From an uncultured Bacilli bacterium (GTDB lineage Bacteria > Bacillota_I > Bacilli_A > RFN20 > CAG-826), in the NCBI GenBank assembly GCA_934168325.1, contig CAKPNG010000005.1, positions 1 to 61,733 on the forward strand: DNA of 61,733 nucleotides, given 5' to 3'. This document shows positions 8,557 through 37,296 of the stretch, one piece after another. The translations under genes were made by a program, and so were the position numbers. The first letter of the stretch is position 1. The number at the start of each line of letters is the position of its first letter. The notes beneath the pieces were generated by a model. It searched no databases. It was not told where the DNA came from and saw only the letters and a list, made by a program, of their open reading frames with translations.

Positions 8557-9999
8557 TTATTTGTTAATAGAATTATACAAATCTAGATACATTAAAGCTG
8601 ATTTTTTCCAACGATGATCTTTTTTCATCGCGTTCTTCCTTAATGCATTCATATATTTAGCATTACTATAATATAAATTAAAAGCTTTATCTATTGATTC
8701 ATTTGCTTCAAAATTTGAGAAATCATCAAATCCAATTCCATCAGCTTTTAAGTAATTAGAGTTATCATTATTTAAGCAAGTAACAGTGTCAACTAAACCA
8801 CCAGTTCTTCTAACAATTGGAAGTGCTCCATATCGATGAGCAATCATTTGTCCTATACCACATGGTTCAAAAGCACTAGGCATAATAAAGAAATCACAGC
8901 TAGCATATAACTTGTGAGCTAATAGATCATTATACCCAATATAGACATAACTATTTTTAGGATTTAAAGCTTTAAATCTATTAAAGAAACATTCAGCTTC
9001 ATATTCTCCACTACCTAAAATTGCAAATGTTCCATTATGATTAATTACTTCTTGAGCCATTCCATAAATTAATTCTAAGCCTTTTTGAGAAGTTAATCTA
9101 CTTACTATAGTAAACATCGGAACCTTAGGATTTAAACCATTTTCCTTGCAAAACTCAACTTTATTTTTAGATTTTAAAGTATTTACATTTGATTCATTAT
9201 ACATTACATAGATATTTTTATCTTTACGAGGATTAAATTCTTTTTCATCAACGCCATTAACAATACCTATAAAATCATCTTCTCTAAGAAGTAAATCATA
9301 ATATAATCCTTTACTTCCATCGATTGTTAATAATTCATTACGATGAGTTGGTGAAACTGTTGTAATCTTATCAGAATAAACAATTCCTGCTTTTAAAGTT
9401 GATACTTGACCATCAAGTCTAACCTTGCCTTCATCATATAAATTAGTAGGTAAGTTATATAAATCAAATAAAGAATCTCTATTAATATAACCTTTAAATA
9501 AAGGATTATGAATTGTCAATACACACTTAATTTTATTAAAATAATTATCTGATCCATATTTAGTTTTTATTAAGCAAGATAACATAGAAACTTGCCAATC
9601 ATTTAAATGTAATACATCAAATTTAATTGGTAAATATTTCATTAATTCAATAATAGCTAAGCAGAAAAAAGCATAACGCTCACCATCATCATAATAACCA
9701 TAAAGTCCATTATCACGATCAAAATAATAATCGTTTTTAATTAAAAAATAATCAATCTTATCATAAACTACATGATAAATACTTGCGTTTATCTTTCTCC
9801 AATTCATTGTAACTATTAAATCACATACATGATTAATCTTTTTATGAACTTTCTTTTCTATTTCTTTATAAAAAGGTAATACAAAAGATACATTATGATT
9901 TAATTTAACAAATTCTTTACTTAAACTATAGCTAACATCAGCTAAACCCCCAGTTTTACAAAAAGGTAAAGCCTCACTTGCTGTCATTAAAATATTCAT
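8557..9999 (-). CDS. glgA: glycogen synthase (ADP-glucose type)
   Basis: The N-terminus 'ASEALPFCKTGGLADV' is diagnostic of GlgA. Length is 480 aa. The TAATG junction overlaps glgD. Confidence 0.93.
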   Translation of the reverse strand: MNILMTASEALPFCKTGGLADVSYSLSKEFVKLNHNVSFVLPFYKEIEKKVHKKINHVCDLIVTMNWRKINASIYHVVYDKIDYFLIKNDYYFDRDNGLYGYYDDGERYAFFCLAIIELMKYLPIKFDVLHLNDWQVSMLSCLIKTKYGSDNYFNKIKCVLTIHNPLFKGYINRDSLFDLYNLPTNLYDEGKVRLDGQVSTLKAGIVYSDKITTVSPTHRNELLTIDGSKGLYYDLLLREDDFIGIVNGVDEKEFNPRKDKNIYVMYNESNVNTLKSKNKVEFCKENGLNPKVPMFTIVSRLTSQKGLELIYGMAQEVINHNGTFAILGSGEYEAECFFNRFKALNPKNSYVYIGYNDLLAHKLYASCDFFIMPSAFEPCGIGQMIAHRYGALPIVRRTGGLVDTVTCLNNDNSNYLKADGIGFDDFSNFEANESIDKAFNLYYSNAKYMNALRKNAMKKDHRWKKSALMYLDLYNSINK

Positions 10000-11117
10000 T
10001 ATATATTAGCCCCTTGAGGAATATAAATTGGATCAGATTCAGTTCCTATAACTTCATCTTTATTTTTTATATGACAATGTTTATCAACAATAACATGTTT
10101 TAAATGAATTCCATTTTTAATAACTGAATCAGTAAATATGATACAATCTTCAACACTAGCACCTTCTTCAACTTTAACATTTCTAGATAAAATAGAATGT
10201 TTAACAGTGCCATCTATTTGACATCCATTAGCAAGTAAAGAATCACTAACTTCAGCTTTTTCACCATATAATACCGGAGTAGAATTATGAGTAGTAGTAT
10301 AATAAATCCAATCATCTTGGAAGAAATCATTAACTACTTCTTTATTATCAATAAATTCAAAACTAAAATCATAATAATCTTTTAAACTATTAAAATATCT
10401 ACAATATCCTTTATATTCAATAGCATGAATCTTTTCTTTATAATTACATATAAAATGAATTAAATCTTTTAAAGTAAACATCGAAGAAACATCACTAACT
10501 TTATTTAATAATTCACGAAGATAATCAGTATTAAAAATATAAGTTTCCATCGATATATATTCATCATCATTAATTCCATTATTAGAACTAAATTTTTGAA
10601 TATTACCTAAAGCATCAATTGTAATCTTATCACAACCGATAAAATTAGTTTTAGCATTATCAACATGCTTATATAAAACACTTATAACTTTATTAGATTT
10701 AATATGTTCTTCAATAACTTCATTAAAATCTACTTTACAAACAAAAGCAACAGGTACTACAACAATATATTTAGCATTCTTATCATATAAGAACCAATCA
10801 TTTTCTTTAATATTATTAATATCAGTATTAAAAGGAGGATTAGTTAAGCCGTATTCATTAATAAATATTGATTGAAAACCAGTCTTAGGATTTTTTAAAT
10901 AAGTAGCATCACTACCTAAATGTTTAATAATACTTCTAGAATGATCTTTAACTAAAATACCAATATTATCAATTCCACTATTAGTTAAATTACTTAAAGC
11001 AAAATCAATAAAAGTATATCTTCCTAAAAAAGTAGTAGATGCCATTGGACGAGATTTAGTTAAAACACCTAAATTCTCTTTATTATGTAAATCAACTAAA
11101 GCAATTACATTTTTCAT
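9999..11117 (-). CDS. glgD: glucose-1-phosphate adenylyltransferase, GlgD subunit
   Basis: Nucleotidyltransferase plus left-handed beta-helix layout without the GlgC 'GGKGTRL' loop. It occupies the position between glgC and glgA seen in Firmicutes. Confidence 0.85.
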   Translation of the reverse strand: MKNVIALVDLHNKENLGVLTKSRPMASTTFLGRYTFIDFALSNLTNSGIDNIGILVKDHSRSIIKHLGSDATYLKNPKTGFQSIFINEYGLTNPPFNTDINNIKENDWFLYDKNAKYIVVVPVAFVCKVDFNEVIEEHIKSNKVISVLYKHVDNAKTNFIGCDKITIDALGNIQKFSSNNGINDDEYISMETYIFNTDYLRELLNKVSDVSSMFTLKDLIHFICNYKEKIHAIEYKGYCRYFNSLKDYYDFSFEFIDNKEVVNDFFQDDWIYYTTTHNSTPVLYGEKAEVSDSLLANGCQIDGTVKHSILSRNVKVEEGASVEDCIIFTDSVIKNGIHLKHVIVDKHCHIKNKDEVIGTESDPIYIPQGANI

Positions 11118-12250
11118 TTACTAAGACTCCTTCCATAATCAATTAATACAACTTCTTCACTATCTTTATTAATTGTTTCATTATCTTTAATAACAGTATT
11201 AGGTCCAATAATTGCATTATTTACATAAGCATTTTTACCAATTTTTACTCCAGGCATTAAAACTGAATCCTTAACAGTAGCATTTTTATCTATAAAAACT
11301 TCATTAGAAATAACACTAGAATTGACATTTCCGTAAATAATTGCCCCTTGATTTATCAAACAATTACTAACTTTAGCATCTTTTGAAATAAATTGAGGAG
11401 TTGAGTGAGTATCTTCACTATAAATTTGAGGATATTCACTAAATCTAATTGTTTCACTATTTCTATTATTAGGTAAAAGTTCCATATTAGCTTGATGAAG
11501 TGAAGATAAAGTACCAACATCACGCCAATAACCTTTAAATCTATAAGCAACAATTTTCTTATTATTATTTAATAAATAAGGAATAATATTCTTACCAAAA
11601 TCATGAGAACTATTTTCATTTTTAGCATCAAGTAAAAGAGCTTTTTTTAATTCTTTATAAGTGAAAATATATACACCCATACTAGCTAAATTTGATTTAG
11701 GAACTTTAGGTTTTTCAACAAATTTAGTAATAACATCATTATTATCAACTTCTAAAATACCAAATCTACTAGCTTCATAAATTGGTACTTCTAAAACACT
11801 AATTGTACAACTAGCACCAGTTTTAATATGGAGATCAAGCATTTCATTATATTGAGCTTTATATATATGATCACCACTTAAAATAAGAACATATTCAGGA
11901 TCTTCATCATCTAAAAAATCAATGTTTTGATAGATTGCATCAGCTGTTCCTTTATACCAATTAGCACCTTCTTCAGTTTGTCGAGGTGATAAACATAAAC
12001 ATTTACCCCCAACACCGTTAAAGCCCCATTTTTCACCATTGCCTATATAATTATTTAAGACAATAGATTCATATTGAATCAAAACTCCGCAAGTATCAAT
12101 ACCACTATTTGCAACATTTGATAAAGAAAAATCAATAATACGATATTTCCCACCAAAATAAACTGCAGGTTTAGCAATTTTCTTGGTCAAAGCCTGTAAT
12201 CTAGTTCCCTTACCACCAGCTAAGATCATTGCTACACACTGTTTAGACAT
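11114..12250 (-). CDS. glgC: glucose-1-phosphate adenylyltransferase
   Basis: 'AMILAGGKGTRL..LT...AKPAV.FGGKYRIIDF.LSN' is the GlgC signature. GGAGG RBS at 12257-12261. Confidence 0.93.
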   Translation of the reverse strand: MSKQCVAMILAGGKGTRLQALTKKIAKPAVYFGGKYRIIDFSLSNVANSGIDTCGVLIQYESIVLNNYIGNGEKWGFNGVGGKCLCLSPRQTEEGANWYKGTADAIYQNIDFLDDEDPEYVLILSGDHIYKAQYNEMLDLHIKTGASCTISVLEVPIYEASRFGILEVDNNDVITKFVEKPKVPKSNLASMGVYIFTYKELKKALLLDAKNENSSHDFGKNIIPYLLNNNKKIVAYRFKGYWRDVGTLSSLHQANMELLPNNRNSETIRFSEYPQIYSEDTHSTPQFISKDAKVSNCLINQGAIIYGNVNSSVISNEVFIDKNATVKDSVLMPGVKIGKNAYVNNAIIGPNTVIKDNETINKDSEEVVLIDYGRSLSK

Positions 12251-12279
12251 ATAAGACCTCCTTTAATCTATTATATATA

Positions 12280-15200
12280 CTAATCTTCTTTCGAATATAA
12301 TAATACACAACTACTATTCTTATCGTGGCTAACAAGTAATGTTTCATCAACAAGTTCAGCTATATCTCCAATTTTTTCAGGAGGTGTAGATAAAATAACT
12401 TGTAAATTAAATCTTCTTAATAATTTAACAGCTTCAATAATTCTTTCACGGTCCATCTTAGAGAAAGCTTCATCGAATATAATCATACGAATTGTATTAG
12501 CGATTTCTCCTTCATCATGAACGTGATAAAGTTGAGCAAAACTTGCTAAGACAGAAATATAGAATGGAGTTTGAGTTTCACCACCGGATTTCTTCTTAAT
12601 CATCTTAGATAATCTTTGTTCTTCACCACTATTCTTATTATACACTATTAAATCAAAATCTAAGTAGCTACGATAATCAGTAAACTTTTCAATATTTTGT
12701 AATAAAGCACTATTTCTTTCATTATTTCCGATATCAACGATTTGTCTAAATAAATCTTCCATGACATCTTTATATTTTTCTAAGAATGGGGTTTCATCTT
12801 CTCCAGTATCTAAAATGATATCATCTTTAAGCATGTCATAATATCTTCTATAAACTTGAGAAGGTTTAACAGTGAATCTATATAAATCGCTTCCAAAGCT
12901 TGATTCTTTTAAAGCAACATTTAAATTAGCAATTTGATCTTCAACATCTTCAATTGCACTTCTTAATTTGAAGATAAAATCATCTTTAAATTGTTGAGTT
13001 GCTTTATGATAAGAATCTTCAATTTTTGCACGATATTCAGGAAGTTTAACTTCTTTAAATTCATTTAATTCTTTATCAAAATCATCATTAACTACTTTTT
13101 CAGGATCAAAAGATAAATGATAATCATGTAAATAATCTCTTCTTAATTTAACAAGTTGATTGAAAATATTATTTACAACATATTGTAATCTAGTGAATCC
13201 AGCTGTATTTTCTTGATAAATTTGAATATAAGATTTTCTTGAATCAAGTTCTAATTCTAAAATTGGAACACATTTAGTATTAACAAATTCTAAATCATAA
13301 GCATTTGCAAGCTCAGTTTCCATTTGTAAAATCTTAGATTCTTCTTCTTTAATTTTTTCAGTTTTTAAATTTTTAATTTCAGTTGTTAAATTACCTTTTT
13401 CTAAAATTAAAGATTCATTAGATTTATTAATAGAATTAATATCATCACTAACATCTTTTAATCTCTTATCTAAAGAATTAATTAATGTAGTATCATGTTC
13501 ACTAAGTTCATTTTCAATATAATCTAAGCTAGATTTTAAGCCTTTTAATTGAGCTAATTTCTCAATTGTTTTAGTAATATTGATAATTTCATTACTATTG
13601 AGGGCTTCTAAATTATTAGCTTCAGTAATAACACTATGTAAACTACGATAAATTCCTAAATTAGATAAATTAGAATTTAATTCACTACTTTTTTCTTTTA
13701 AGAAACGAGCATCTAATTTACGACCAATAAAACTATTTTGATAAATACGTGGATTTATCTTATTAAAAGCGAAATTACGATAAACATCACATTCTTTAGT
13801 AATACCATTTCCACTATTTCTAGCTTCTTCAATATTAGTTGATTTATGTAAACGACCAATTAAGAAATTAGTATAAGCTCTAGCACCTTCATGATCTGTA
13901 ATAATTTCAGTAGCTAAAGAAGCTTTATCCATATCGAAATCTCTTTCGATAATCTTTTCTTGGTCAATTAAAGCAATGCCATATAATCTAACTTCATCGA
14001 TAATTCTTCTAAATATCTTATAAGCATCAATATAATATTTAGGAGCAACAAATAAATTAAATCTTTGTCCACCTAAAAATCCTTCGATTGCATTAGACCA
14101 ACTTAAGTCTTTTATATCGATTAAATCAGCATAAATTTCAACTGGTATATCACGATTAAATTTCTCTTTAAGTTCTTTTTCAAGTCTAGATTTAACTATG
14201 ATTAATGTACGATCATAAGGCTTAGTACCTGTATCACGAATTCCTCTTTCTTCTTCTTTTAAAGAAGCAATCTTTTTCTCAATATTTTGAATAGCTCTAG
14301 CAATTGAAGTAGCTAAAGAACTAACTTTATTTTTAAAACTTGCTAAATGGATACGATAATTCTCTAAGTTTTCTTTATCCAATAACATTAAATTAGATAA
14401 ATAATTATCTTTAAATTTCATTGATTCATCAAAAACAACTTGAGCATCATGCTCTAAATCTAAAAGTTCACGGTCTTTATCTTCATCTAAGAAATCTCTA
14501 TCAAATGTTGATAATTTCTTTAATAAAGAAGAAGTTGCTTTTATATAATTATCAGTATAACGAGTTAAATTTTCTTTAACTTCATTTTCTTCAAATTTTA
14601 TAGCATCAATTTTAGCACTGATTTCACGTTTTTCTTCGATTAATTCATCAGTAATTTTAACTGTATCATTATTAGCTTTATCGCTAATTAAATTAGCTCT
14701 TCTTCTTTCAAGTTCTTCTAAATTAGATTTATTTTCATTTAGTTCAACATCGATTTCATTGATTCTTTTAGTAGCTTTTAAAACTTCATTTTTAAAACTA
14801 TTTAGTTTATCTTTACTCATTTCGAGTTGACATCTTTGAATAATATATTGAGAAACAGTTAATTTTTCTTTATTTGTTTTATATATATTATAAGTATTAG
14901 CAATTTCATCAAGTTGATTTACACGAAGTTCAATTGCTTCAGCTTCTTTTTCTAGTCTTTTATATTGAAGAATATTATCTTGAAGAGCTTCTAAATTAAT
15001 ATCAGCTTGTGGATCACAAACGTATTCTGTAATAAAAGTAGTAATATCAGTAATTGGAGAGAAACTACTAGCTTTTTTAAGTAGGCTAAAATATTTATCT
15101 TTAAGACCACCAAATTTCTTCTTTAAGAAATCTTGATATTGTCGATTAGAATCGAAGAATTGATAATCATTTTTATCATAATTAGTAGCAAAATATTTAG

Positions 15201-15654
15201 CTAAATCTTTATATTCCATTGGATATTTATCAACAATGAATTCATTTTCAGGAATTTTATCATTAGTTGAGAAGAAATGATGTTCTTCACTACCATCATT
15301 TGAAGTATCAAAAACAATACCCATAGTAAAATATGAATCATGTAAATCATCATAAAATTCAAGAGCAATATAAGAAGTAAAACGTCCATTTCTTAAATAT
15401 TTAAAATCACCTTCAGCAGTATCACCAATTTCACCACGAAGATAACCTTTTAAAGTACGAGCACTTTTATCCATAGCAGCTTTATTAAAGAATCTACCAG
15501 TGGTATCTCCTAATAAAACTAAAGATAAAGCATCGATTAAAGTCGATTTACCTGATGCATTTTTACCAGTTAAAAATACTATTTGTTTAAATTCTACAGT
15601 TTGATTCCAAAAATAATGCCAATTTATAATTTTTGCTTTAGTAAGTGATTTCAT
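12280..15654 (-). CDS. SMC-like ATPase resembling Wadjet JetC / condensin MksB
   Basis: N-terminal P-loop 'FLTGKNASGKSTLIDAL', a very long coiled-coil middle, C-terminal 'SGGETQTPFYISVLASF' and Walker B 'MIIFDEAFSKMD'. Length is 1124 aa. GGAGGA lies 8 nt before the ATG. Confidence 0.7.
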   Translation of the reverse strand: MKSLTKAKIINWHYFWNQTVEFKQIVFLTGKNASGKSTLIDALSLVLLGDTTGRFFNKAAMDKSARTLKGYLRGEIGDTAEGDFKYLRNGRFTSYIALEFYDDLHDSYFTMGIVFDTSNDGSEEHHFFSTNDKIPENEFIVDKYPMEYKDLAKYFATNYDKNDYQFFDSNRQYQDFLKKKFGGLKDKYFSLLKKASSFSPITDITTFITEYVCDPQADINLEALQDNILQYKRLEKEAEAIELRVNQLDEIANTYNIYKTNKEKLTVSQYIIQRCQLEMSKDKLNSFKNEVLKATKRINEIDVELNENKSNLEELERRRANLISDKANNDTVKITDELIEEKREISAKIDAIKFEENEVKENLTRYTDNYIKATSSLLKKLSTFDRDFLDEDKDRELLDLEHDAQVVFDESMKFKDNYLSNLMLLDKENLENYRIHLASFKNKVSSLATSIARAIQNIEKKIASLKEEERGIRDTGTKPYDRTLIIVKSRLEKELKEKFNRDIPVEIYADLIDIKDLSWSNAIEGFLGGQRFNLFVAPKYYIDAYKIFRRIIDEVRLYGIALIDQEKIIERDFDMDKASLATEIITDHEGARAYTNFLIGRLHKSTNIEEARNSGNGITKECDVYRNFAFNKINPRIYQNSFIGRKLDARFLKEKSSELNSNLSNLGIYRSLHSVITEANNLEALNSNEIINITKTIEKLAQLKGLKSSLDYIENELSEHDTTLINSLDKRLKDVSDDINSINKSNESLILEKGNLTTEIKNLKTEKIKEEESKILQMETELANAYDLEFVNTKCVPILELELDSRKSYIQIYQENTAGFTRLQYVVNNIFNQLVKLRRDYLHDYHLSFDPEKVVNDDFDKELNEFKEVKLPEYRAKIEDSYHKATQQFKDDFIFKLRSAIEDVEDQIANLNVALKESSFGSDLYRFTVKPSQVYRRYYDMLKDDIILDTGEDETPFLEKYKDVMEDLFRQIVDIGNNERNSALLQNIEKFTDYRSYLDFDLIVYNKNSGEEQRLSKMIKKKSGGETQTPFYISVLASFAQLYHVHDEGEIANTIRMIIFDEAFSKMDRERIIEAVKLLRRFNLQVILSTPPEKIGDIAELVDETLLVSHDKNSSCVLLYSKED

Positions 15655-16279
15655 TATTTAAGTCCTCCGATTTTTTATTTATTTCATCTAAAATATTGCT
15701 CATAGAAATGATTTTATCGTTATTTAATGCATAAACTATACTAGGTAAGATATAAAAACTAACATTACCTTCATCATAACTTCCACTAACTTTAGAAATA
15801 ATATTATGATTAGCTAAAAATCTTAAACTTCTAGCAAGTCCACGACCACTAAGTCTTTTTCCAGGCATAACAATATTGTGATCAAGCATTTCTTTAATTA
15901 ACATTGGGGTAGTCATATAAATTGAAACACCAGCTTCATTAGATTCAGATTTTTCATTTTCATAAATTAATCTTAATGCAAATAAAACTAAGCTAGTTTC
16001 TCTATCAATTCTAAGACGATTATCGTAATATTCATTACTTAAAGCAACAACACCTAAAATATTATCTTTTTCAACATGCCAACCACTAAATTTAAGATAT
16101 CCTTCAAATACGTCAAAATATCTTTCCATAAATCTATAATCAGGATTAACTCTCATTATTTTTTCTTTTGCATCAAATATATCTCTTACTATAAAGCCTT
16201 TAAGTAATAATCTATTACAAACTTCAGCAAATTTACTTTGATCGCCAGCAGGCATTTTTATAAAATCATCACTAAACAT
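15638..16279 (-). CDS. JetB/MksE-like (DUF4194-like) subunit
   Basis: 213 aa, the typical size and position between the kleisin-like and SMC-like genes. It overlaps the next gene by 17 nt. The assignment rests on sequence impression only. Confidence 0.55.
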   Translation of the reverse strand: MFSDDFIKMPAGDQSKFAEVCNRLLLKGFIVRDIFDAKEKIMRVNPDYRFMERYFDVFEGYLKFSGWHVEKDNILGVVALSNEYYDNRLRIDRETSLVLFALRLIYENEKSESNEAGVSIYMTTPMLIKEMLDHNIVMPGKRLSGRGLARSLRFLANHNIISKVSGSYDEGNVSFYILPSIVYALNNDKIISMSNILDEINKKSEDLNNEITY

Positions 16280-16281
16280 AA

Positions 16282-17709
16282 TTAGTTATTCTCCTTTCTT
16301 TTGAATAAAAAGTGTGGAACACGATAATGATTATTAATAATCTTCTTATCGTCCACTAATTCGATTGTATAAAAACAATCTTTATTATCTTTTTTAACAG
16401 TAGCAAAAATTAAACAAATAAATGCTTCAAAATTAGTTAATGGCATGTCTTCAACTCTTAAAGTATCGCTATCACCGAAACAATTTTCCATAAATTCATA
16501 AATTTTTTCATCAGTATAAATATTCTTTGTAGCTTCTAAGAAATCTTTCATGATTTCATCATTTGCAAAATCAAAATCAACGATTTGCATTGGTGAAGTA
16601 TCTTCGTTATATTTTCTTAAAATTGGGAATGTAATTGATTCGCTATCAACATATCCTTGTTCATATAAATAGATTGAATCTTGCATTTTAGATAAAATCT
16701 TTGATAAAGAACGAGGATCATTAACTGATTTAGAATAAGCTTTAAATATATTTTCTAAATGTCCTTTAATAGATTTATCATTATTATTTAAATAAAGAAT
16801 CTTATTAGTAGAAGATTTAGTATAAGCGCTATTTTCTTTATCAATATGATTAATTACACTATTTAAAGAGTGATAAGTATCAGTTATATAATTAATTTTT
16901 GTAATAATATCTTTTTCAATTTCTTCTTTAGGTAAACTAGTATTTGCAATACTTGAAAGTAAAACTAATTTATTTCTAATTTCTTTATTATTTAACCAAT
17001 TTTCTAATATTGTAATAATTGGTCTTTTAAATTTAGCGACACTATCGAATGTTTTTAATGGATGATAATATCTATCTAAAATTTTATATTTATAAACATC
17101 AAAGAAATCATACAATACTTCATTTGTTTGAAACATCTTACCTAATTTAGATTGGAAGATTCTAATTGAGTGAGATAAAGTAATGAGTTCAACTTTTAAT
17201 TTTTTAGTATTTTCATAACATCTTACTAAAGTTATATACATTAAATCATCTTGCTCTTCATCTTCTAATTTAAGTTCACTATAAGTTGAATGAACTAAAC
17301 TTAAATATGGAGATTCTTCATCACCAATGATGTCTCTAAAAGTTTTTAAAATAAAAATAGAATAAACAGGTAAGATAATTGTTTCTTCCATTGTTTCAGT
17401 ATTCATCGCGATATTTATCCAACCAGTTTCTTCAAGTCTTCTAACTAAAAAACTTGCTTTGGTTGACAAATTATCAATAATAATATTTTCGTCTGATTTA
17501 AAGTCTTCCTCTTCTTCTAATAAATCAAGGTTTTCTAATTCCTTTTTTCCTTTTTCTTTAAGTGCTTTAATATAGTCAGTTTTATTGATTGCGTTTTCAT
17601 CATTTTCAAGCATTTCATAAAGGATTAGCAAACTTTCAGCATAAATAGAGCGGTTTTTACCAGAAAAAATTGAGAAATATTTTATAGGTAATATATCAAA
17701 TAAATTCAC
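16282..17709 (-). CDS. JetA/MksF-like (kleisin-like) subunit
   Basis: 475 aa and first gene of the triplet. It has a GTG start (17707-17709) with AAGAGGG 9 nt upstream. The assignment rests mainly on size and order. Confidence 0.5.
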   Translation of the reverse strand: MNLFDILPIKYFSIFSGKNRSIYAESLLILYEMLENDENAINKTDYIKALKEKGKKELENLDLLEEEEDFKSDENIIIDNLSTKASFLVRRLEETGWINIAMNTETMEETIILPVYSIFILKTFRDIIGDEESPYLSLVHSTYSELKLEDEEQDDLMYITLVRCYENTKKLKVELITLSHSIRIFQSKLGKMFQTNEVLYDFFDVYKYKILDRYYHPLKTFDSVAKFKRPIITILENWLNNKEIRNKLVLLSSIANTSLPKEEIEKDIITKINYITDTYHSLNSVINHIDKENSAYTKSSTNKILYLNNNDKSIKGHLENIFKAYSKSVNDPRSLSKILSKMQDSIYLYEQGYVDSESITFPILRKYNEDTSPMQIVDFDFANDEIMKDFLEATKNIYTDEKIYEFMENCFGDSDTLRVEDMPLTNFEAFICLIFATVKKDNKDCFYTIELVDDKKIINNHYRVPHFLFKRKENN

Positions 17710-17738: not shown

Positions 17739-17747
17739 ATTATAGCA
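17739..17747 (-). promoter_or_regulatory. candidate extended -10 promoter (TGcTATAAT) for the jetA-like gene
   Basis: The minus strand reads TGCTATAAT about 30 nt upstream of the GTG start. The -35 is weak. Confidence 0.4.
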
Positions 17748-17854
17748 TAAAAACATTTTATATATTAATATAATTTGTATGTTTTTTATAAAAAAATTGA
17801 ATGACGATTATATAATACTTTTAATTAAATATTTTTAAATAAAAAGTAAATTAT

Positions 17855-18718
17855 TTAGTCATTAATTTTTAAATAAGGTTCAATTTTTAGTCCTATTTTA
17901 TTTATAATTTCTAGCCCTAATTCAATTGCTTTATCATTAAGACAAGATGGGTCATGAGCATCTAATCCAATAATAATTTTTAAGCCATCTTCTTGATATT
18001 TTTTAATATATTCAAAGAAATTAATATTAGGATAAGGATAATTTTTATAATCTTTATAACCCCATGACTTAGAATTTCTAATTCCATTAATATTAAATTC
18101 TAAATAAACATTATTTTTAATTGCTTCAAGACATAATTCATCAATTCTATCTAATATATGTTTATTAAAATGAGTATTAAAATCACTTAAATAAGAAACA
18201 CAAAATAAATCAGGATGAGCAATAACTTTAAATAATTTAGATTTAATAGCACTAATTATAGTGTCAAAATATCCATCAACATTATCTTCATTAATTTCAG
18301 AAAAACTATTAATAAGTTTTCCTTTATAACTATAAAAATGAACACCTAAAATCATATAATCAAGTTTAGATCTTAAATACTTATAATATTCGATATCATC
18401 GATAAAAAATTCAGTTTCACTACCTTTATAAATCTTAATTTTATCTTTATATTTAATAATTGCTTCATCTATTTCTTTTAAATAAATATTTAAAAAAGAA
18501 TATAAACTCATATTTAAATTTAAATAATTTTTATGTAATTTTACTTTGTCAAAATAAGCTAAATCAATTGGGTTATGATCTGAAAATCCTAATTCAATAA
18601 ATCCTAAATCAATCGCTTTTAAAACATAATCAAAAACATCGCCATTAGCATGATTACATAAATAAGTATGAGTGTGATAATTAGCTTTAATTTCTTTCAT
18701 TTCACATATTATATTCAA
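17855..18718 (-). CDS. PHP-domain phosphoesterase, HisJ/HisK histidinol-phosphatase family
   Basis: 'YHTHTYLCNHA', 'FSDHN', 'GSETE', 'GVHF', 'AHPDL' and 'GLDAHD' match the PHP metal-ligand pattern in HisJ order. Confidence 0.75.
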   Translation of the reverse strand: MNIICEMKEIKANYHTHTYLCNHANGDVFDYVLKAIDLGFIELGFSDHNPIDLAYFDKVKLHKNYLNLNMSLYSFLNIYLKEIDEAIIKYKDKIKIYKGSETEFFIDDIEYYKYLRSKLDYMILGVHFYSYKGKLINSFSEINEDNVDGYFDTIISAIKSKLFKVIAHPDLFCVSYLSDFNTHFNKHILDRIDELCLEAIKNNVYLEFNINGIRNSKSWGYKDYKNYPYPNINFFEYIKKYQEDGLKIIIGLDAHDPSCLNDKAIELGLEIINKIGLKIEPYLKIND

Positions 18719-18896
18719 TTTAGGTTATAAAGTTAATTTAAATGAGTTAATTTTAAATAACTAATTATAGAATTGTTCATAATTATTTGTTTTATTACTA
18801 TATGAAATTAATTATGTAATAAATTATTTTTTACTATAATTTATATTAAATACATCATAAAAAAATTATTTTAATTATGCTGAATATGAAATAAAA

Positions 18897-19094
18897 TTAT
18901 TCTTTTCTTGTTAAAATAAAAACAATAAGTACTCCAAAAAGTGAAAACATTAATGCTAAAAAAGTAAGTATTATAATGAAATCTTGGTTATATCCCGAAA
19001 GCGTTACATAAGAAATTACAAAAGTCAAAATAGTTGTAATTATAGACAAAATAACAGAAATTATTCTAAAATTTAATTTTTTAATACCCTTCAT
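18897..19094 (-). CDS. possible small two-TM membrane protein
   Basis: 65 aa and hydrophobic, but the AGGA abuts the ATG, so the RBS spacing is poor. Confidence 0.3.
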   Translation of the reverse strand: MKGIKKLNFRIISVILSIITTILTFVISYVTLSGYNQDFIIILTFLALMFSLFGVLIVFILTRKE

Positions 19095-19258
19095 TCCTAA
19101 TTTATTTCACTTTATTTTTTTTAGGAATTATTCAACATATTTTATTAAGCAACTTCTCCTTTGTATTTATAATATTAGTGTAAATAAATAGTAAAATTAT
19201 TTATTAATGTTTATAATAATTTGAAAGGATTATTATAAAGTTATTAAAGAATTAAATT

Positions 19259-29397: not shown

Positions 29398-31809
29398 TTA
29401 TTTATTAGGAATCTTACTTAAGTGCCAAATATCACGATTATATTCTTCAATAGTTCTATCACTACTAAAGTAACCACTCATTGCAATATTTATTAAGCAA
29501 CTCTTTGCCCAAGCTTTTTTATCTAAATAATATTCTTCTACTTTCTTAGATTCTACTAAATAACTTTCAAAATCCTTTAAGATAAAGTATTCATCATTAT
29601 GATTCATAACTTCTTCAAATATTGCTCTAAATTTATTAGGTTCATTACACCAAGGACCATTAAATAAACTATCAAGAATTCTTCTAATATGTGGATTACT
29701 ATTATATTCATCCCATGGATTATATAATCCTTTATTTCTTAATTCTTCAATATCATTAACTTTTAAACCAAATATAAAGCAATTATCTTTTCCAACACGT
29801 TCACTAATTTCAACGTTAGCACCATCTAAAGTACCTAAAGTTAATGCACCATTCATCATAAATTTCATATTTGATGTACCACTAGCTTCTTTACCTGCAG
29901 TTGAAATTTGTTCACTAACATCAGTTGCTGGGATAATCTTTTCAGCTATAGAAACACCATAATTTTCCATAAAGACTACTTTCATATATTTATTAACTTC
30001 TGGGTCATTATTGACAATATTAGCAACACTTAAAATTAATTCAATAATTTGTTTTGCAAAGTAATATGAAGGAGCAGCCTTAGCACCAAAAATATATGTA
30101 TGAGGTACCATTTTGAAATTTTTATTATTCTTTATTTCAAAATAATAATGCATAATTCTAAAGATATTCATCAACTGTCTTTTGTAAGCGTGAAGTCTTT
30201 TGATTTGTGTATCAAATATTGAATTAGGATCAATTTCGATGTTATAATTCTTCTCAATATATTTAGCTAATGCAACTTTATTATCGTGCTTAATTTTCAT
30301 TAAACCCTCTAAAACTTCACTATTATTTTTAAATTCAATAAATTTCTCAAGTTCATTTTCTGGATTAATTTCCCATTTATCACCAATTGATTTTGTAATT
30401 AAATTAGCTAATTCAGTGTTAGAATACATCAACCAACGTCTATGAGTAACGCCATTTGTTTTATTATTAAATTTATTAGGGAAATATTTATAGAATGTTT
30501 TAAATGTTTCTTTCTTTAAAATATTAGTATGTAAAGCAGCAACACCATTAACACTAAAACAAGTGAAAATTGCTAAATTAGTCATTCTGACCATACCATC
30601 TTTAATAATAATCATATCATTAAATTCGTTTTCATTGACATTATTTTCATGCATCCAAATCATTTGTCTACGATTAATTTCTTCAATAATCATAAAGCAA
30701 CGAGGAATTAATTTTTGAATATAAATTATTGGCCACTTTTCTAAAGCTTCAGGCATAATTGTATGATTTGTATAAGCAATACATTGGGTAACTTGTTTCC
30801 AAGCACTATCCCATCCATATCCATAATCATCCATTAATAATCTCATTAATTCAGGAATAGCTAAAATTGGGTGAGTATCATTTAATTGGAAAACATATTT
30901 TTCATAGAAATTATCTAAAGTTCCATATCTTCTTAAATGTCCTCTTAAAGCACTTTGAAGGCCAGCACTTACAAAGAAATATTGTTGTCTTAATCTAAGA
31001 ATTCTACCATGTTCAGTTGAATCATCTGGATATAAACCATGGCATAATTCTTTTAAAGTTGTTAAATAATCTTCAAAAGATTGACCACTTTCAAGATTAT
31101 TTTCACTAGGTTCAGCACTCCATAAACGAAGTGTATTTGCTAAACCATTTTTATAACCTGGTATATAAACATCATATGGCATAGCTAAAACTTTAACAGC
31201 ATCAACAGTTCTAATACCATATCCACCATTAGGTTTTAAATATGTTTCAGCGTTTCCATAGAAACTAACTTCAACAGCATGTTTTGGCTTTCTAATTTCC
31301 CAAACATATCCATTTGTAAGCCATTGATCGGGTAATTCAATTTGCTTTCCATCAATTAATCTTTGTTTAAAGAATCCGTATTCATAACGAATACAGTTTC
31401 CAAATCCTGGATAATTAACACTAGCAATACTATCTAAAAAACAAGCAGCTAATCTTCCAAGACCACCATTTCCTAAGCCGGCATCTGCTTCTATATCTTC
31501 TAAAGCTTCTAAATCTATTCCTAAATCTTCTAAGCCTTCCTTACAGATATTATAAATACCCATATTCATCATATTACTAGTTAATAAACGACCAATTAAA
31601 AATTCCATTGAGAAATAAATTAATTGTTTTTGATTATTCTCTAATACATATTCTCTAGTATTACGCCAATCATGTCCGCCATAATCACGAACCATTTCAC
31701 CTAATATATCAAATTGTTCTAAAATATGTGCTTCATTTGGAGCTTTACCATATTTAGATACTAAACGATCTTTAAATTCATTTATAAATTCTATTTTATT
31801 TTTAAACAT
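29398..31809 (-). CDS. glgP: glycogen/maltodextrin phosphorylase
   Basis: 'EAGLGNGGLGRLAACFLDS' and the PLP site 'EASGTSNMKFMMNGALT'. Length is 803 aa. Confidence 0.95.
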   Translation of the reverse strand: MFKNKIEFINEFKDRLVSKYGKAPNEAHILEQFDILGEMVRDYGGHDWRNTREYVLENNQKQLIYFSMEFLIGRLLTSNMMNMGIYNICKEGLEDLGIDLEALEDIEADAGLGNGGLGRLAACFLDSIASVNYPGFGNCIRYEYGFFKQRLIDGKQIELPDQWLTNGYVWEIRKPKHAVEVSFYGNAETYLKPNGGYGIRTVDAVKVLAMPYDVYIPGYKNGLANTLRLWSAEPSENNLESGQSFEDYLTTLKELCHGLYPDDSTEHGRILRLRQQYFFVSAGLQSALRGHLRRYGTLDNFYEKYVFQLNDTHPILAIPELMRLLMDDYGYGWDSAWKQVTQCIAYTNHTIMPEALEKWPIIYIQKLIPRCFMIIEEINRRQMIWMHENNVNENEFNDMIIIKDGMVRMTNLAIFTCFSVNGVAALHTNILKKETFKTFYKYFPNKFNNKTNGVTHRRWLMYSNTELANLITKSIGDKWEINPENELEKFIEFKNNSEVLEGLMKIKHDNKVALAKYIEKNYNIEIDPNSIFDTQIKRLHAYKRQLMNIFRIMHYYFEIKNNKNFKMVPHTYIFGAKAAPSYYFAKQIIELILSVANIVNNDPEVNKYMKVVFMENYGVSIAEKIIPATDVSEQISTAGKEASGTSNMKFMMNGALTLGTLDGANVEISERVGKDNCFIFGLKVNDIEELRNKGLYNPWDEYNSNPHIRRILDSLFNGPWCNEPNKFRAIFEEVMNHNDEYFILKDFESYLVESKKVEEYYLDKKAWAKSCLINIAMSGYFSSDRTIEEYNRDIWHLSKIPNK

Positions 31810-31833
31810 ATTTTCTCCTAATAAATGTTAAAT

Positions 31834-33729
31834 TTATTTAAACTTTAATATAATTCCAGCATAAGGGGCTAACTTAACACTAATCTTAAATGGTTTATTT
31901 TCAGGTCCACCATTTGAAGTAACTAAATCTAAGCCATTATATGCATTACTTCCGCCATAAACATCTTTATCACTATTAAATATTTCTTGATAAGTACCTT
32001 CTCTAGTGACTCCAATATCATAACTTTCATAATAATTTGGTGTCATATTAAATATAAATATAAGATGAGAATCACCGACTCTTCTTTCAAAAGCAAATAC
32101 TGATTGATCTTTATTATCAACCATTAACCAATTGTAATGTACAGGATTATATTCTTCAAAATACATTGCAGGTTCATGACGATAAATTAAATTTAAATCT
32201 CTCACTAATCTAGAAACACTATCATGTTTTGGATAGCGTTTTAATTCCCAAGGAAGTGATTTATTTTCATTCCATTCATCAAAACTAGCAAGTTCATTAC
32301 CCATGAAATTTAATTTTTTACCTGGATGAGCAAATTGATAAGTATATAAATTTCTAATTAATGCAAATTTTGTATCATAATCGCCAAACATTTTATTAAT
32401 AATAGTACCTTTTCCATGAACTACTTCATCATGAGATAATGGTAATAAGAAGTTTTCGCTAAAGAAATATGCCATTGAGAATGTAATCTTATCATGTTCA
32501 TATTTCTTATATATAGGATCTAATCCATAATACTTTAATGTATCATTCATCCAGCCTAAATCCCACTTATAATCAAATCCTAATCCACCATATTCAAGAG
32601 GTTTAGTTACACCAGTGAAATCTGTACTATCTTCAGCAATCATCATGACACTATCATGTAGAATATGCATTTTACCATTTAATCTACGAATAAATTCAGT
32701 AGCTCCATAATTTTCGCCATTATTTTTATTACCTTCCCAATAAACAATATTACTGACAGCATCGACTCTAATACCATCAAAATGGAAATATTCAATAAAA
32801 TAATTCATAGCACTCATTAAGAAGCTTCTAACTGGATCTTTACCTAAGTCAAATTGTAAACTACCCCATGGGCTATATTTATGTTCATTATCATATTCAT
32901 ATAAACAAGTACCATCAAAATGACATAAAGCAAATTCATCTGTAGCAAAATGAACAGGTGCAAAATCTAAAATAACGCCGATCCCAGCTTGATGTAATCT
33001 ATCAACAAAAGACATAAGTTGCATAGGATTTCCATATCTACTATCTACACTATAAAATCCTGTTGATTGATATCCCCAAGATCCATCAAAAGGATATTGA
33101 GTGATAGGCATTATTTCAACATGAGTATAACTAAGTGCTTTTAAATAAGGAATTAAGAAATCAGCAATTTCTTCATATGATAAATTTCTATTATCAATTT
33201 TTCCTTTCCAAGATCCTAAATGCATCTCATAAATCGACATTGGTTGATCAAAATTTCTAGTTCTATGTTTTAAAAATGGTCTATCATGCCAAATAAATCC
33301 ATCTATATTAAATAATCTAGAACAACTTCCTGGTCGATATTCACTAAAGAAAGCAAAAGGATCTGCTTTATCAACATAAATCCCTCTAGCATCCTTAAAA
33401 TGATATTTATAAAAGCTATAATTATGTAAATTTGGAATAAAAATCTCAAAAACACCAGCTTCATCAATCTTTTCCATTTTATGAATTTTAGGATCCCAAT
33501 TATTAAAATCGCCAATAACACTAACATCTTCTGCCATAGGTGCATATAATCTAAAAACAACACCTTCAACAGTAGTCATTATCTTACTTTTTTTAGTCTT
33601 TTTTGAATTCTTTTTTAAAGGAACTAAAATTTCAGTCTCGACTTCTCTTTTAACAAAATGAGCACCAAAATAATTATAAGCTTCAATACATTGTCCGTTT
33701 AAATAATCATAAAGCAATCCGTAAGCCAT
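31834..33729 (-). CDS. glgB: 1,4-alpha-glucan branching enzyme
   Basis: GH13 motifs 'DFAPVHF', 'FDGIRVDAV', 'MIAEDST' and 'LPLSHDEVVHGK'. Length is 631 aa. Confidence 0.95.
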   Translation of the reverse strand: MAYGLLYDYLNGQCIEAYNYFGAHFVKREVETEILVPLKKNSKKTKKSKIMTTVEGVVFRLYAPMAEDVSVIGDFNNWDPKIHKMEKIDEAGVFEIFIPNLHNYSFYKYHFKDARGIYVDKADPFAFFSEYRPGSCSRLFNIDGFIWHDRPFLKHRTRNFDQPMSIYEMHLGSWKGKIDNRNLSYEEIADFLIPYLKALSYTHVEIMPITQYPFDGSWGYQSTGFYSVDSRYGNPMQLMSFVDRLHQAGIGVILDFAPVHFATDEFALCHFDGTCLYEYDNEHKYSPWGSLQFDLGKDPVRSFLMSAMNYFIEYFHFDGIRVDAVSNIVYWEGNKNNGENYGATEFIRRLNGKMHILHDSVMMIAEDSTDFTGVTKPLEYGGLGFDYKWDLGWMNDTLKYYGLDPIYKKYEHDKITFSMAYFFSENFLLPLSHDEVVHGKGTIINKMFGDYDTKFALIRNLYTYQFAHPGKKLNFMGNELASFDEWNENKSLPWELKRYPKHDSVSRLVRDLNLIYRHEPAMYFEEYNPVHYNWLMVDNKDQSVFAFERRVGDSHLIFIFNMTPNYYESYDIGVTREGTYQEIFNSDKDVYGGSNAYNGLDLVTSNGGPENKPFKISVKLAPYAGIILKFK

Positions 33730-34322: not shown

Positions 34323-34979
34323 TTAAAATAATAAAACTAATCCAATAGGAATATAACTTAAAATTAAATTTAAAAATACACCCCATTCTAGCATTGCTAA
34401 ATAACAATATTTAGGTCTAGCAAATACTTCAGCATCAAATTTAACCATCTTAGCCCAGCTTTTTGAAGTTTTATTAATAATTAAAATAACACTAAATATC
34501 AATTGTAAGCAAATCACCACAATTGAAGCTATACATACACCTTTTATGACTGTATATCCTCTATCAATACTAGAAAAATAATAAAACATTAATAAATCTA
34601 AAGCTATTTGAATACCAGTAAATGAAGATGCTAATAATAAATGTCCTCTAAAATTTGATAATTTAGTGAATAGTAATAAAACAAAAACTAAATAATCAAT
34701 AATAAACATAATCATTATTATATAACTACTAACATAGCTAAAATTAATAGCAAATAAAATAATAGGAGTTATAAAAAGTAATGAACAAATAACTAATAAT
34801 AAAATAGAAATTTTGCCTTGTTTTGTTTTTCTTCTGAAGCCATTTAATTCAAAAGGAAAATAACTTAAAAAATGAAATTTATTACTTCCTGTTAAATTAA
34901 ACATCGAAATCCATTGACCAAAAGTTAATCCAAAGAAGAAAAGTGAAATTAATATAATTACAATAAAAGCTGTACCCAT
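34323..34979 (-). CDS. multipass membrane protein, function unknown
   Basis: 218 aa and highly hydrophobic. It starts 3 nt after the rpe stop. Confidence 0.5.
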   Translation of the reverse strand: MGTAFIVIILISLFFFGLTFGQWISMFNLTGSNKFHFLSYFPFELNGFRRKTKQGKISILLLVICSLLFITPIILFAINFSYVSSYIIMIMFIIDYLVFVLLLFTKLSNFRGHLLLASSFTGIQIALDLLMFYYFSSIDRGYTVIKGVCIASIVVICLQLIFSVILIINKTSKSWAKMVKFDAEVFARPKYCYLAMLEWGVFLNLILSYIPIGLVLLF

Positions 34980-34982
34980 AAA

Positions 34983-35639
34983 TTACTCTCCCAAAATTAA
35001 GCTAACTGCTACTTTTTTATCAGTAGCTTTTGCTAAATAACTACCACAAACTAAAAGATTTGCACCGCTATTAAATATAGTTTTTGCGTTATCACTTTTA
35101 ATTCCACCATCAACTTCAATTATATAATTAAGTCCTTTATTTTTTCTAAAAGTGTCTAAATCCCTAATTTTTATATAGGAATTGATAATAAATGATTGTC
35201 CACCAAAGCCAGGTTCAACAGACATAACTAATGCCAAATCAATCATTGGTAAGAATTTTATAATTGCTTCAATAGGTGTATTAGGTTTAATAGAAATTCC
35301 ACATTTACATCCAAAACTATGAATATAATTAATTAATTCAATAACCTCATTATCATTATCTAAAGCTTCATAATGAAAGGTAATTATATCAGCTTTAGCT
35401 TTAGCAAACTGCTCAATATAATCTTTAGGATTCGTGATCATTAAATGTACATCGTTTATTAAATTATGTTTTTTATTAATAGTAGATAAAATATGTGGTC
35501 CAAAGCTAATATTATTAACAAAATGACCATCCATGACATCATAATGTAAATATTTAACACCGCTATTAAAAATATTTTCTAAATCTAATTCTAAGTTAGA
35601 AAAATCACTCGATAATATTGAATAAGATAGTTCTTTCAT
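34983..35639 (-). CDS. rpe: ribulose-phosphate 3-epimerase
   Basis: 'LHYDVMDGHFV.NISFGP', 'MSVEPGFGGQ.F' and 'VDGGI'. Confidence 0.93.
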   Translation of the reverse strand: MKELSYSILSSDFSNLELDLENIFNSGVKYLHYDVMDGHFVNNISFGPHILSTINKKHNLINDVHLMITNPKDYIEQFAKAKADIITFHYEALDNDNEVIELINYIHSFGCKCGISIKPNTPIEAIIKFLPMIDLALVMSVEPGFGGQSFIINSYIKIRDLDTFRKNKGLNYIIEVDGGIKSDNAKTIFNSGANLLVCGSYLAKATDKKVAVSLILGE

Positions 35640-35660
35640 AATGTTATTTTACCACATCTT

Positions 35661-36551
35661 CTAATTGGATGATAATCCAAAAATTCTCGCTAATAGGCTT
35701 CTTCCTTGCTTCATAGCTTTTTTATTCTTATATAAATTTAAAATATCATCTCTCATAAGTTTGACAGTTTTATATCTAACGCGTAAATCTTTATCTACGG
35801 CTTTAAAAAATATCTTTTCAGCTTCTTTTGGTAAAGAAGGAATTATTTTTAAAGGACTAGGCATTACTTCTTTAACATGTTTAATTGCTATATCATTAGG
35901 ATTATCACCATCAAAAGGAACATTTCCAGTAATTAATTCAAAAAATAATATTCCTAATGCATAAATATCACTTTGATAACTTCCACCAGCTTTCCCAGTA
36001 ACAAGTTCTGGAGCTAAATATTGAGCAGTTCCAGCAATTTTTTTATTCTCATTAATATTTAAATTACTATCTAATAATATAGATATACCAAAATCACCAA
36101 TTTTAACGGATCCATCAGGTAAAATATAAACATTAGAACTTTTAATATCTCGATGAATAATCTTTTTAGAATGAATATAAATTAAAGAATCACAAAGTTG
36201 TAACATAATCGAGCAAGCTTCGTTGATCGTATAAGCACCTTTAAAATCAAGTGAATCTCTTAAAGTTTGTCCTTTAACAAATTCATTTACTATAAATAAT
36301 GTATTATCGTATTCACCATAATCATAAATTTTAACAATATTTGGATGATTTAAAGCACTAGAAAATCTAGCTTCATTTTGAAATCTTATGATATTATCTA
36401 CTTTTTTTAAGGCTTCTGGTTTTAAAAATTTAATAGCAACATTTCTTTTTAATATGAAGTCTCTAGCTTCATATACATTACTCATTCCACCTTTTCCAAT
36501 TGTAGCAACTATCTTATATCGTTCACTTACTATATCATTAATTCTTATCAT
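35661..36551 (-). CDS. Ser/Thr protein kinase, catalytic domain only (PrkC position, no TM or PASTA)
   Basis: Hanks motifs 'GKGGMSNVY', 'VAIK', 'HRDIKSSN', 'DFG' and 'APE'. The protein ends about 25 aa after the kinase domain. Confidence 0.88.
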   Translation of the reverse strand: MIRINDIVSERYKIVATIGKGGMSNVYEARDFILKRNVAIKFLKPEALKKVDNIIRFQNEARFSSALNHPNIVKIYDYGEYDNTLFIVNEFVKGQTLRDSLDFKGAYTINEACSIMLQLCDSLIYIHSKKIIHRDIKSSNVYILPDGSVKIGDFGISILLDSNLNINENKKIAGTAQYLAPELVTGKAGGSYQSDIYALGILFFELITGNVPFDGDNPNDIAIKHVKEVMPSPLKIIPSLPKEAEKIFFKAVDKDLRVRYKTVKLMRDDILNLYKNKKAMKQGRSLLARIFGLSSN

Positions 36552-37296
36552 CTATACACTCCCAAAGTGCAACAGAGATATTATCACTACCACCATTAAA
36601 ATTAGCGACATTAATTAAACTATTAACTTTAGTTTCAGTAGAATCATCAGTTCTTAAGATATTTTCAATATCTGGGGTATTAACATTGTTATATAAGCCA
36701 TCACTACATAATAAAATACTTTCTTTATTATATTTATATACTTTTATATTTAAACTAATTGAAGGATAAATACCAACAGCATTAATTAAAACATGACGTT
36801 TAGGATGAGTTTTAATTTCATCTTCCTTAATTTGCCCACTATTATATAAATAATTAGCATAAGTTTCATCTTCACTTAATTGCTTAAATTCTTTTTTAGA
36901 TAAAATATAGCATCTACTATCACCGGCATTTGCTATTATTAAATTATTGTTATAAAGAAAAGCTAATATAATAGTTGTTCCCATTCCTTTATAATTAGCA
37001 TCAGAATAGCTTAAATCATATAACTTTTTATTTATAATCTTTAAAGTACGTCTAATAAAATGAATACAATCAAATGTGGAATAAAATTTTTTTCTTTTTT
37101 TAAAAGCTTCAGTTAGTTCATTAATAACTTCTAAACTAGCGAAATCACCTTTATTAGCGCCACCCATTCCATCAGTAACCATCATCAAAAGATCACCATT
37201 ACTATTAATAAGTATTTTGGATTCATCTTCATTTGATATTCTTACTTTTCCTAAATCTTTTTTGTAAGAGAATGTACCATTAAATTTGTGTTTCAT
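36538..37296 (-). CDS. PP2C-family Ser/Thr phosphatase (Stp/PrpC)
   Basis: PP2C motifs 'RISNEDE', 'VTDGMGG', 'GTT', 'GDSR', 'CSDGL' and 'GGSDNISV'. Confidence 0.88.
   Translation of the reverse strand: MKHKFNGTFSYKKDLGKVRISNEDESKILINSNGDLLMMVTDGMGGANKGDFASLEVINELTEAFKKRKKFYSTFDCIHFIRRTLKIINKKLYDLSYSDANYKGMGTTIILAFLYNNNLIIANAGDSRCYILSKKEFKQLSEDETYANYLYNSGQIKEDEIKTHPKRHVLINAVGIYPSISLNIKVYKYNKESILLCSDGLYNNVNTPDIENILRTDDSTETKVNSLINVANFNGGSDNISVALWECIDDKN

Follow-up and report, generated by a model that had tools for sequence, protein, structure and literature searches.

A type I Wadjet-like jetABC operon without jetD at a housekeeping locus of uncultured gut Bacilli

The 61.7-kb metagenome scaffold CAKPNG010000005.1 (assembly GCA_934168325.1, from an uncultured Bacilli bacterium; 61,733 nucleotides (nt), hereafter the window) carries three tightly packed minus-strand genes, jetA, jetB and jetC, that correspond to the core of a type I Wadjet system but are not accompanied by a gene for the JetD nuclease. 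We favor the reading, at a probability of about 0.6, that these genes encode a type I Wadjet-derived structural maintenance of chromosomes (SMC) complex that has lost JetD, forming an MksFEB or "JetABC-only" operon whose predicted product would not cleave DNA and most likely has a chromosomal role. Nuclease-less Wadjet-group operons are already catalogued, and the trio is not a new kind of system. What is added here is its tight synteny with glgCDA and rpmB, the breadth of the clade, which spans 61 loci at species level, and a molecular change that is a candidate signature of disarmament.

The interconversion of anti-plasmid and chromosome-folding SMC machines is an open evolutionary question, and a Wadjet ancestry of MukBEF and MksBEF has been a matter of speculation in reviews. 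The clade described here offers a comparatively shallow example, in which armed JetABCD of Clostridia can be set against disarmed JetABC of Bacilli at 35-41% JetC identity. There is also a practical side: defense finders that require all four genes skip these loci, and laxer finders mis-score them as defense.

The jetABC genes and the missing jetD

The first gene, jetA (16282-17709, minus strand), encodes an mksF-like kleisin of 475 amino acids (aa) and starts with GTG. Its stop codon is separated by 2 nt from jetB (15638-16279, minus strand; 213 aa), which encodes an mksE-like KITE subunit, and jetB overlaps by 17 nt with jetC (12280-15654, minus strand; 1124 aa), the gene for an mksB-like SMC ATPase. 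All three genes are intact and are probably translationally coupled. An earlier annotation made from the DNA alone (the sequence-only reading) had reported these coordinates and sizes, the GTG start, the gap, the overlap and a 29-nt distance to glgC, and all are correct.

We searched the three proteins against family profiles. JetA matched Pfam PF18982 (JetA/DUF5716) with E=6.3e-88 over profile positions 2-434 of 434, and matched PADLOC JetA1 over its full length (E=9.3e-118); the kleisin family had been guessed as DUF3375, which is replaced by PF18982. JetB matched Pfam DUF4194 (PF13835, MukE-like; E=8.4e-13) and PADLOC JetB1 (E=4.9e-66). JetC matched PADLOC JetC1 across residues 1-1123 (E=0, 1088 bits), together with Pfam AAA_29 (E=2.5e-16) and SbcC_Walker_B (E=2.2e-24). 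When a profile of JetC relatives was used to search the PDB, the top matches were the solved JetC chains 9qxt and 8as8 (E ~1e-15); PDB sequence searches with the JetA profile, the JetB profile and the single JetC sequence gave no match. Because the Pfam, PADLOC and PDB-profile matches are to Wadjet core subunits, we assign the trio on sequence grounds to type I Wadjet JetABC, with JetC as the SMC ATPase, JetA as the kleisin and JetB as the KITE subunit. The JetABC/MksFEB identity proposed in the sequence-only reading is thus borne out by strong kleisin and KITE matches.

The ATPase motifs quoted in that reading are present, and their residues are invariant across 15 diverse relatives; the translations of all three motifs were checked. 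The Walker A motif GKNASGKST lies at 15541-15567 (minus strand), with G35, K36 and T38 invariant in alignments A1 and A2, and the ABC signature SGGETQ lies at 12571-12588 (minus strand), with S1023-Q1028 invariant in 15/15 relatives. Walker B and the D-loop, MIIFDEAFSKMD, occupy 12451-12486 (minus strand) and include the catalytic E1062, which is invariant together with F1060 and D1061. An AlphaFold2 model of JetC was of low confidence (predicted local distance difference test score 66.6, predicted template-modelling score 0.37) and would place the head at both ends of the chain, with long helices on either side of a globular middle.

No JetD was detected in the window. The Pfam models JetD_C and JetD_N and the PADLOC JetD models matched no window open reading frame (ORF) of at least 120 aa, and a search of the six-frame translation with a hidden Markov model (HMM) trained on 15 JetD sequences from the closest JetD-bearing relatives was likewise negative (best E=4.4). 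These searches covered the 61.7 kb of the window, and within that span the absence of a jetD gene from the module, as claimed from the sequence alone, holds. To sample relatives, the JetC alignment was scanned against one genome per GTDB species, which yielded 80 loci with JetC identities from 87% down to 35%, each examined with up to 10 kb of flank per side. Within these flanks jetD was lacking in 61 of the 80 species-level relatives (59 of the 61 have at least 1.5 kb of sequence 3' of jetC) and stood directly after jetC in the other 19. There the gene after jetC encodes a protein of ~410-460 aa that matches Pfam JetD_C and PADLOC JetD1 (E=1e-134), and the same method detected JetD in 19/19 of these positive loci.

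The 19 JetD-bearing loci come from metagenome-assembled genomes (MAGs) and isolates with names of Clostridia-type Bacillota, together with one that is labelled Desulfovibrio. Their JetC proteins are 35-41% identical to that of the window. The JetD-less MAGs carry names such as Candidatus Onthovivens, Erysipelotrichales/Erysipelotrichaceae, Mollicutes, Acholeplasmataceae or plain Bacilli, and are mostly low-GC gut organisms. In a relative with 63% identity, contigs of ~1.07-1.08 Mb show the same jetABC-glgCDA-leuS-tex order. Because the jetABC-glgC junction recurs in 33 other species and on these megabase contigs, the lack of the fourth gene cannot be put down to an assembly artefact, and the relatives show no four-gene locus that is broken in the window.

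A neighbor-joining tree placed the JetD-less loci in two large clades apart from the JetD-bearing clade, with the exception of four JetD-less loci (L072, L073, L078 and L080) that are nested within the JetD-bearing clade. At two of these (L072:13520-15601 and L078:13525-15606) a same-strand gene for a 693-aa UvrD/REP-like helicase occupies the usual place of jetD. Another locus without JetD (L068:13508-14722) encodes a 404-aa DEAD-box helicase, also in the orientation of jetC and just 3' of it. These helicases are lineage-specific.

Inheritance, selection and changes at the JetD interface

We examined the surroundings of jetABC in the 61 JetD-less species. The glgC gene follows jetC within 140 nt (14-134 nt) in 33 of them and at 0.6-4.5 kb in 16 more, and is thereby linked to jetC in 49/61 loci. 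On the other side, 32 species have a divergent rpmB upstream of jetA, preceded by prpC-prkC-cpgA-rpe with a membrane-protein gene between rpe and rpmB. The order prpC-prkC-cpgA-rpe-rpmB is the one known from B. subtilis. Pfam and PADLOC scans of the window, the flanks of the operon included, found no mobile-element or defense genes beyond jetABC, in agreement with the sequence-only reading; the window is wholly housekeeping and contains leuS, tex, sdaA, thiI, ezrA, infC-rpmI-rplT, glgB/P, rpe and prkC, as well as rlmN, priA, gmk, pfkA-pyk, thrS, rpsD and tyrS. We conclude that, in a large clade of uncultured gut Bacilli, jetABC occupies a fixed place among housekeeping genes and is inherited vertically.

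The ratio of nonsynonymous to synonymous substitution rates (dN/dS) was computed against the closest relative (L006, 87% identical). The values were 0.10 for jetA, 0.08 for jetB and 0.14 for jetC, compared to 0.15-0.36 for the neighboring glgC, glgD and glgA and 0.39 for the PHP-domain gene upstream. The jetABC genes are under strong purifying selection.

Two sequence changes track the loss of JetD. The first lies in a JetC head loop, which in the window reads GEDETPF (residues 951-957; 12784-12804, minus strand) and is the short acidic version found in the JetD-less clades. The loop follows the pattern G[YFHLN][NST][ILV][AFYS]S..F in 19/19 JetD-bearing relatives; in 57/57 deep JetD-less relatives the [ILV][AFYS] dipeptide is deleted and the residues are mostly acidic. 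The shortened loop directly precedes a conserved Phe/Tyr, which is F957 in the window. The second change is at residue 2 of JetB, which is Trp in all JetD-bearing loci and Phe in the window and all deep JetD-less relatives (W2F). The four nested JetD-less loci resemble the JetD-bearing group at both sites, with the long JetD-type loop in 4/4 and W2 kept in the 3/3 that were readable (L072, L073 and L078). Together, the two-residue deletion in the JetC head loop and JetB W2F form a candidate "disarming" signature.

In E. coli JetABCD, the aCAP domain of JetD docks on the "larynx" of the JetC head, where F919 enters a pocket, and the N-terminal helix of JetB has been proposed to touch the same aCAP domain (bioRxiv 10.1101/2023.11.03.565488). 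E. coli JetC F919 aligns to the deleted dipeptide by HMMER and to F957, four residues later, by hhalign. The loop change would therefore lie at the JetD-docking site or within four residues of it, the exact register being ambiguous between the alignments. These correspondences are suggestive of a JetD interface that has been dismantled in the deep JetD-less clades. Such dismantling would make it less likely that an ordinary jetD works in trans.

Possible functions of a JetABC complex without JetD

If the complex behaves like characterized JetABC, then it would still load onto DNA and extrude loops using ATP. Without JetD it should be unable to cleave DNA, and by analogy with P. aeruginosa MksBEF and MukBEF it would most likely act on the chromosome, in compaction, segregation or the resolution of sister DNA. 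The loss of JetD thus makes a chromosomal role more likely than plasmid-cutting defense. The sequence-only reading had suggested either a domesticated condensin-like system or a variant with a different effector. Domestication gains support from the core synteny, the purifying selection and the JetD-correlated sequence changes. The different effector finds none, as no conserved extra gene travels with the trio.

Compared to type I Wadjet JetABCD (B. cereus Q1 and E. coli GF4-3; also MksBEFG/EptABCD), the window operon has the same core subunits, A-B-C order, gene sizes, coupling and ATPase motifs, so that three of the four type I genes are present. It differs in that the operon encodes no JetD Toprim nuclease, in the shortened acidic JetC loop and JetB W2F, and in its fixed housekeeping context, whereas JetABCD occupies variable defense islands. 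The trio has the nuclease-less "FEB" architecture of co-directional kleisin, KITE and SMC genes without a flanking MksG/JetD gene, and it sits at a stable chromosomal locus under purifying selection (synteny in 30-49 species). P. aeruginosa MksBEF is likewise a Wadjet-group complex of three genes that lacks MksG/JetD; it is proposed in the literature to derive from JetABCD, having lost JetD, and to function in chromosome organization, and in P. aeruginosa it coexists with Smc-ScpAB. MksBEF belongs to another phylum and another Wadjet subclade, whereas the window kleisin is of the PF18982/DUF5716 family, and the nuclease loss described here was presumably independent. MukBEF, the gamma-proteobacterial condensin for chromosome segregation, is also a Wadjet-group member without a nuclease, but it is only very distantly related to the window trio and has itself replaced Smc-ScpAB.

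Bürmann et al. (2025, Cell, PMC7617805) have already traced the loss of the nuclease through the Wadjet group (Fig. S1A), and they give operon structures in Data S1. Data S1 lists an Erysipelotrichaceae MAG (SVBD01000001.1) as FEB without G, at coordinates that match our JetD-less locus L049, whose JetC is 42% identical to that of the window; Kandleria vitulina DSM 20405 and one Erysipelotrichales MAG are also listed as FEB. The sequence-only reading was right that JetD is lacking, but its sense of how unusual this is was overstated, since the same source records loss of JetD/MksG and includes a member of this clade. Data S1 further shows that the Erysipelotrichales MAG GCA_022508535.1 (JAFLUZ010000005.1 and JAFLUZ010000004.1) carries a complete FEBG operon apart from its FEB operon, which suggests that armed and disarmed forms can coexist and that their roles differ. 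The gene sizes of that FEB operon match the L029 type (sizes alone were compared). No entry for the subclade of the window itself turned up in the Data S1 table, and the accessible parts of the paper do not describe the Onthovivens-like ~25% GC subclade, its glgCDA/rpmB synteny, the selection data or the JetD-correlated changes.

Several points weigh against a JetD-less chromosomal complex. The search for JetD in relatives covered ±10 kb only, and jetD or another nuclease could lie elsewhere. Loop extrusion on the chromosome is undocumented for the JetABC of a JetABCD system (PMC10586767), and the mapping of the JetC loop to F919 depends on whether HMMER or hhalign is used. In addition, organisms that closely resemble this one in composition and genome size have an Smc lineage of ~981 aa encoded next to rnc. 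A canonical condensin may therefore already be present in the cell, and a second one would then be unexplained.

We looked for Smc-ScpAB in these genomes. When the window and 85 loci were scanned by regular expression and by ORF, smc, ftsY and rnc were all missing, and scpAB was likewise absent from the window and flanks. An acpP gene adjoining jetA in L021 was followed as a lead to smc, and nothing was found there. Smc seeds were obtained by scanning metagenome contigs with a DNA pattern for an AT-rich GPNGSGKSN Walker A; the target contig of ~1.07 Mb was not among the matches listed. Two homologue searches from these seeds recovered at least two lineages of short Smc (~981-985 aa). One of them has znuA-rnc-smc synteny and occurs on a 1,060,646-bp contig of 26% GC and in the Erysipelotrichales-named MAG GCA_022508565.1. 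The whole-genome shotgun prefix of this MAG, JAFLUY, immediately precedes JAFLUZ and JAFLVA, which belong to two JetABC-bearing MAGs with the same NCBI name. Tetranucleotide correlations between Smc loci and JetABC loci were 0.77-0.84, within the range among JetABC loci, which is suggestive only. Six Smc-bearing assemblies were compared with the JetABC-bearing assemblies in the set, and none coincided. The published RFN20 genome papers make no mention of SMC proteins.

From these observations we consider it likely that Smc-ScpAB coexists with JetABC in these genomes. It is correspondingly doubtful that JetABC has become the principal or even sole chromosomal condensin of ~1-Mb gut Bacilli, which would repeat, independently and much more recently, the way MukBEF took over from Smc-ScpAB. 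The rnc-smc lineage lowers the probability of this, since it is present in ~1-Mb genomes of similar composition and in a MAG named "Erysipelotrichales" that is a sibling. If it were true, a MukBEF-like takeover would have been caught at only 35-41% JetC identity to armed JetABCD relatives.

The short Smc lineage (L208-L219, from gut metagenomes and MAGs of ~26-28% GC) has an unannotated ORF of 800-1180 aa after smc, and the 1.06-Mb Smc contig has few Pfam-annotated neighbors.

JetABC could instead still act against plasmids or other mobile genetic elements without cleaving them, for example if it compacts small circular DNA, silences it or causes it to mis-segregate, much as Smc5/6 acts on viral episomes. 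The nearest JetD-bearing relatives are bona fide type I Wadjet systems, and the literature documents SMC-based, non-nucleolytic restriction in eukaryotes. Restriction by the tested JetABCD systems nevertheless needs a JetD Toprim residue (literature). The operon also keeps one core position in over 30 species, with a dN/dS of ~0.1, and lacks the patchy, island-type distribution typical of defense genes; these features argue against a defense function, and we regard this explanation as unlikely.

Somewhat less probable again is an ordinary Wadjet system whose nuclease acts in trans, be it the product of a jetD at another site of the genome or a recruited nuclease of unrelated origin. The searches were limited to the 61.7-kb window and the ±10-kb flanks of relatives, which leaves room for such a gene. 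The nested loci L072, L073, L078 and L080, which have kept the JetD-type loop and W2, show that recent or apparent losses occur. On the other side, jetD lies directly 3' of jetC in 19/19 JetD-bearing relatives, and the operon has no further conserved gene beside it. The deep clades, moreover, combine the two-residue JetC deletion at or near the docking residue with a changed JetB W2.

A decaying defense remnant without current function is very improbable. Although the defining effector is lost and the genomes are reduced (~1 Mb), the three ORFs are intact in 61 species with invariant ATPase motifs, the dN/dS values of 0.08-0.14 are below those of the neighboring glycogen genes, and 5.4 kb of useless DNA is implausible in ~1-Mb genomes. 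Species-wide intactness and dN/dS effectively refute this explanation.

Least credible of all is a repair ATPase of the SbcC/Rad50, RecN or RecF kind with a superficial likeness to Wadjet, which the Pfam names SbcC_Walker_B and AAA_23 and weak RecF and MukB-N matches might suggest, but which is already refuted by the full-length JetC1 match (1088 bits, against 22 bits for RecF, ~23 bits for LmuB and 18-42 bits for MADS) and by the solved JetC chains that top the profile matches. The JetA and JetB partners are encoded alongside, and SbcD/Mre11 was not found; no partner gene of SbcCD/Rad50, RecN, RecF or Lamassu LmuB (SbcD/Mre11, LmuA) adjoins the trio. The large protein therefore groups with JetC and not with SbcC, RecN or RecF, as the sequence-only reading had it.

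Two other SMC assignments were also rejected. As the Smc of Smc-ScpAB, JetC scored 17.3 bits against SMC_N (cut-off 40) and left SMC_hinge (PF06470) unmatched, whereas true Smc proteins of similar organisms match both. As for MukBEF, the MukB-N score (PF04310) was 18.7 bits, below the cut-off of 23, and the partner proteins belong to the JetA and JetB families and not to MukF and MukE.

Neighboring genes and further observations

Downstream of jetC lie glgC-glgD-glgA (8557-12250, minus strand), identified from their ORFs and from Pfam families in L001, an identical copy of the contig, as context outside the SMC complex. The glgC gene (11114-12250, minus strand) begins with ATG at 12250, 29 nt after the jetC stop. 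The 29-nt spacer (12251-12279, minus strand) contains the glgC ribosome-binding site AAAGGAGG and no terminator-like site, which implies read-through into glgCDA. In most relatives glgCDA comes directly after jetC, with which it is probably co-transcribed. The genome has ~25% GC and is apparently reduced, and it retains a full glycogen set, with glgB and glgP located ~17 kb from glgC/D/A (29398-33729).

A putative jetA promoter lies at 17739-17768 (minus strand), with TTAATA and TATAAT separated by 18 nt and a TG extension; the assignment reflects a 10/12 consensus match only. This extended -10 element is followed by the ribosome-binding site AAGAGGG and then by the GTG at 17709.

Besides the lineage-specific helicases, two candidates for an alternative effector were considered and rejected. 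Outside the window, the PHP-domain gene upstream of jetA recurs in L006 alone. The genes that intervene between jetC and glgC in deeper-branching JetD-less relatives encode small predicted membrane proteins without similarity to JetD. One to three such small genes occur in L045-L051, L028, L029, L059, L064, L067, L075 and L040-L042. They fall into clusters c2 (~300-370 aa, 12 loci), c3 (~150 aa, 6 loci) and c7 (~285 aa, 3 loci), whose products have hydrophobic N-termini and match no curated Pfam family, c3 having only a sub-threshold match to MASE6. The c2 gene is found 3' of jetC even where glgC is missing (L028 and L029).

Compared to relatives L011-L066, the window has its prpC-prkC-(cpgA)-rpe-rpmB block at ~34.3-37.3 kb (34323-37296), split from jetABC by a rearrangement. 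In place of that block, the region upstream of jetA holds the PHP-domain gene (17855-18718, TTG start) and a spacer of 540 nt that is very AT-rich (18719-19258). Three window ORFs, at 38310-39581 (423 aa), 134-1237 (367 aa) and 56961-58445 (494 aa), had no significant Pfam or PADLOC match; one of them gave a weak, non-significant PADLOC match. The 423-aa ORF sits in the priA-rlmN interval, which in B. subtilis holds def, fmt and rsmB.

Finally, the relative with a 1.08-Mb contig (L003) carries, ~6-8 kb upstream of jetA (L003:50-1922), two opposed Methylase_S genes around a recombinase of the phage-integrase family, a layout that looks like a phase-variable hsdS shufflon.

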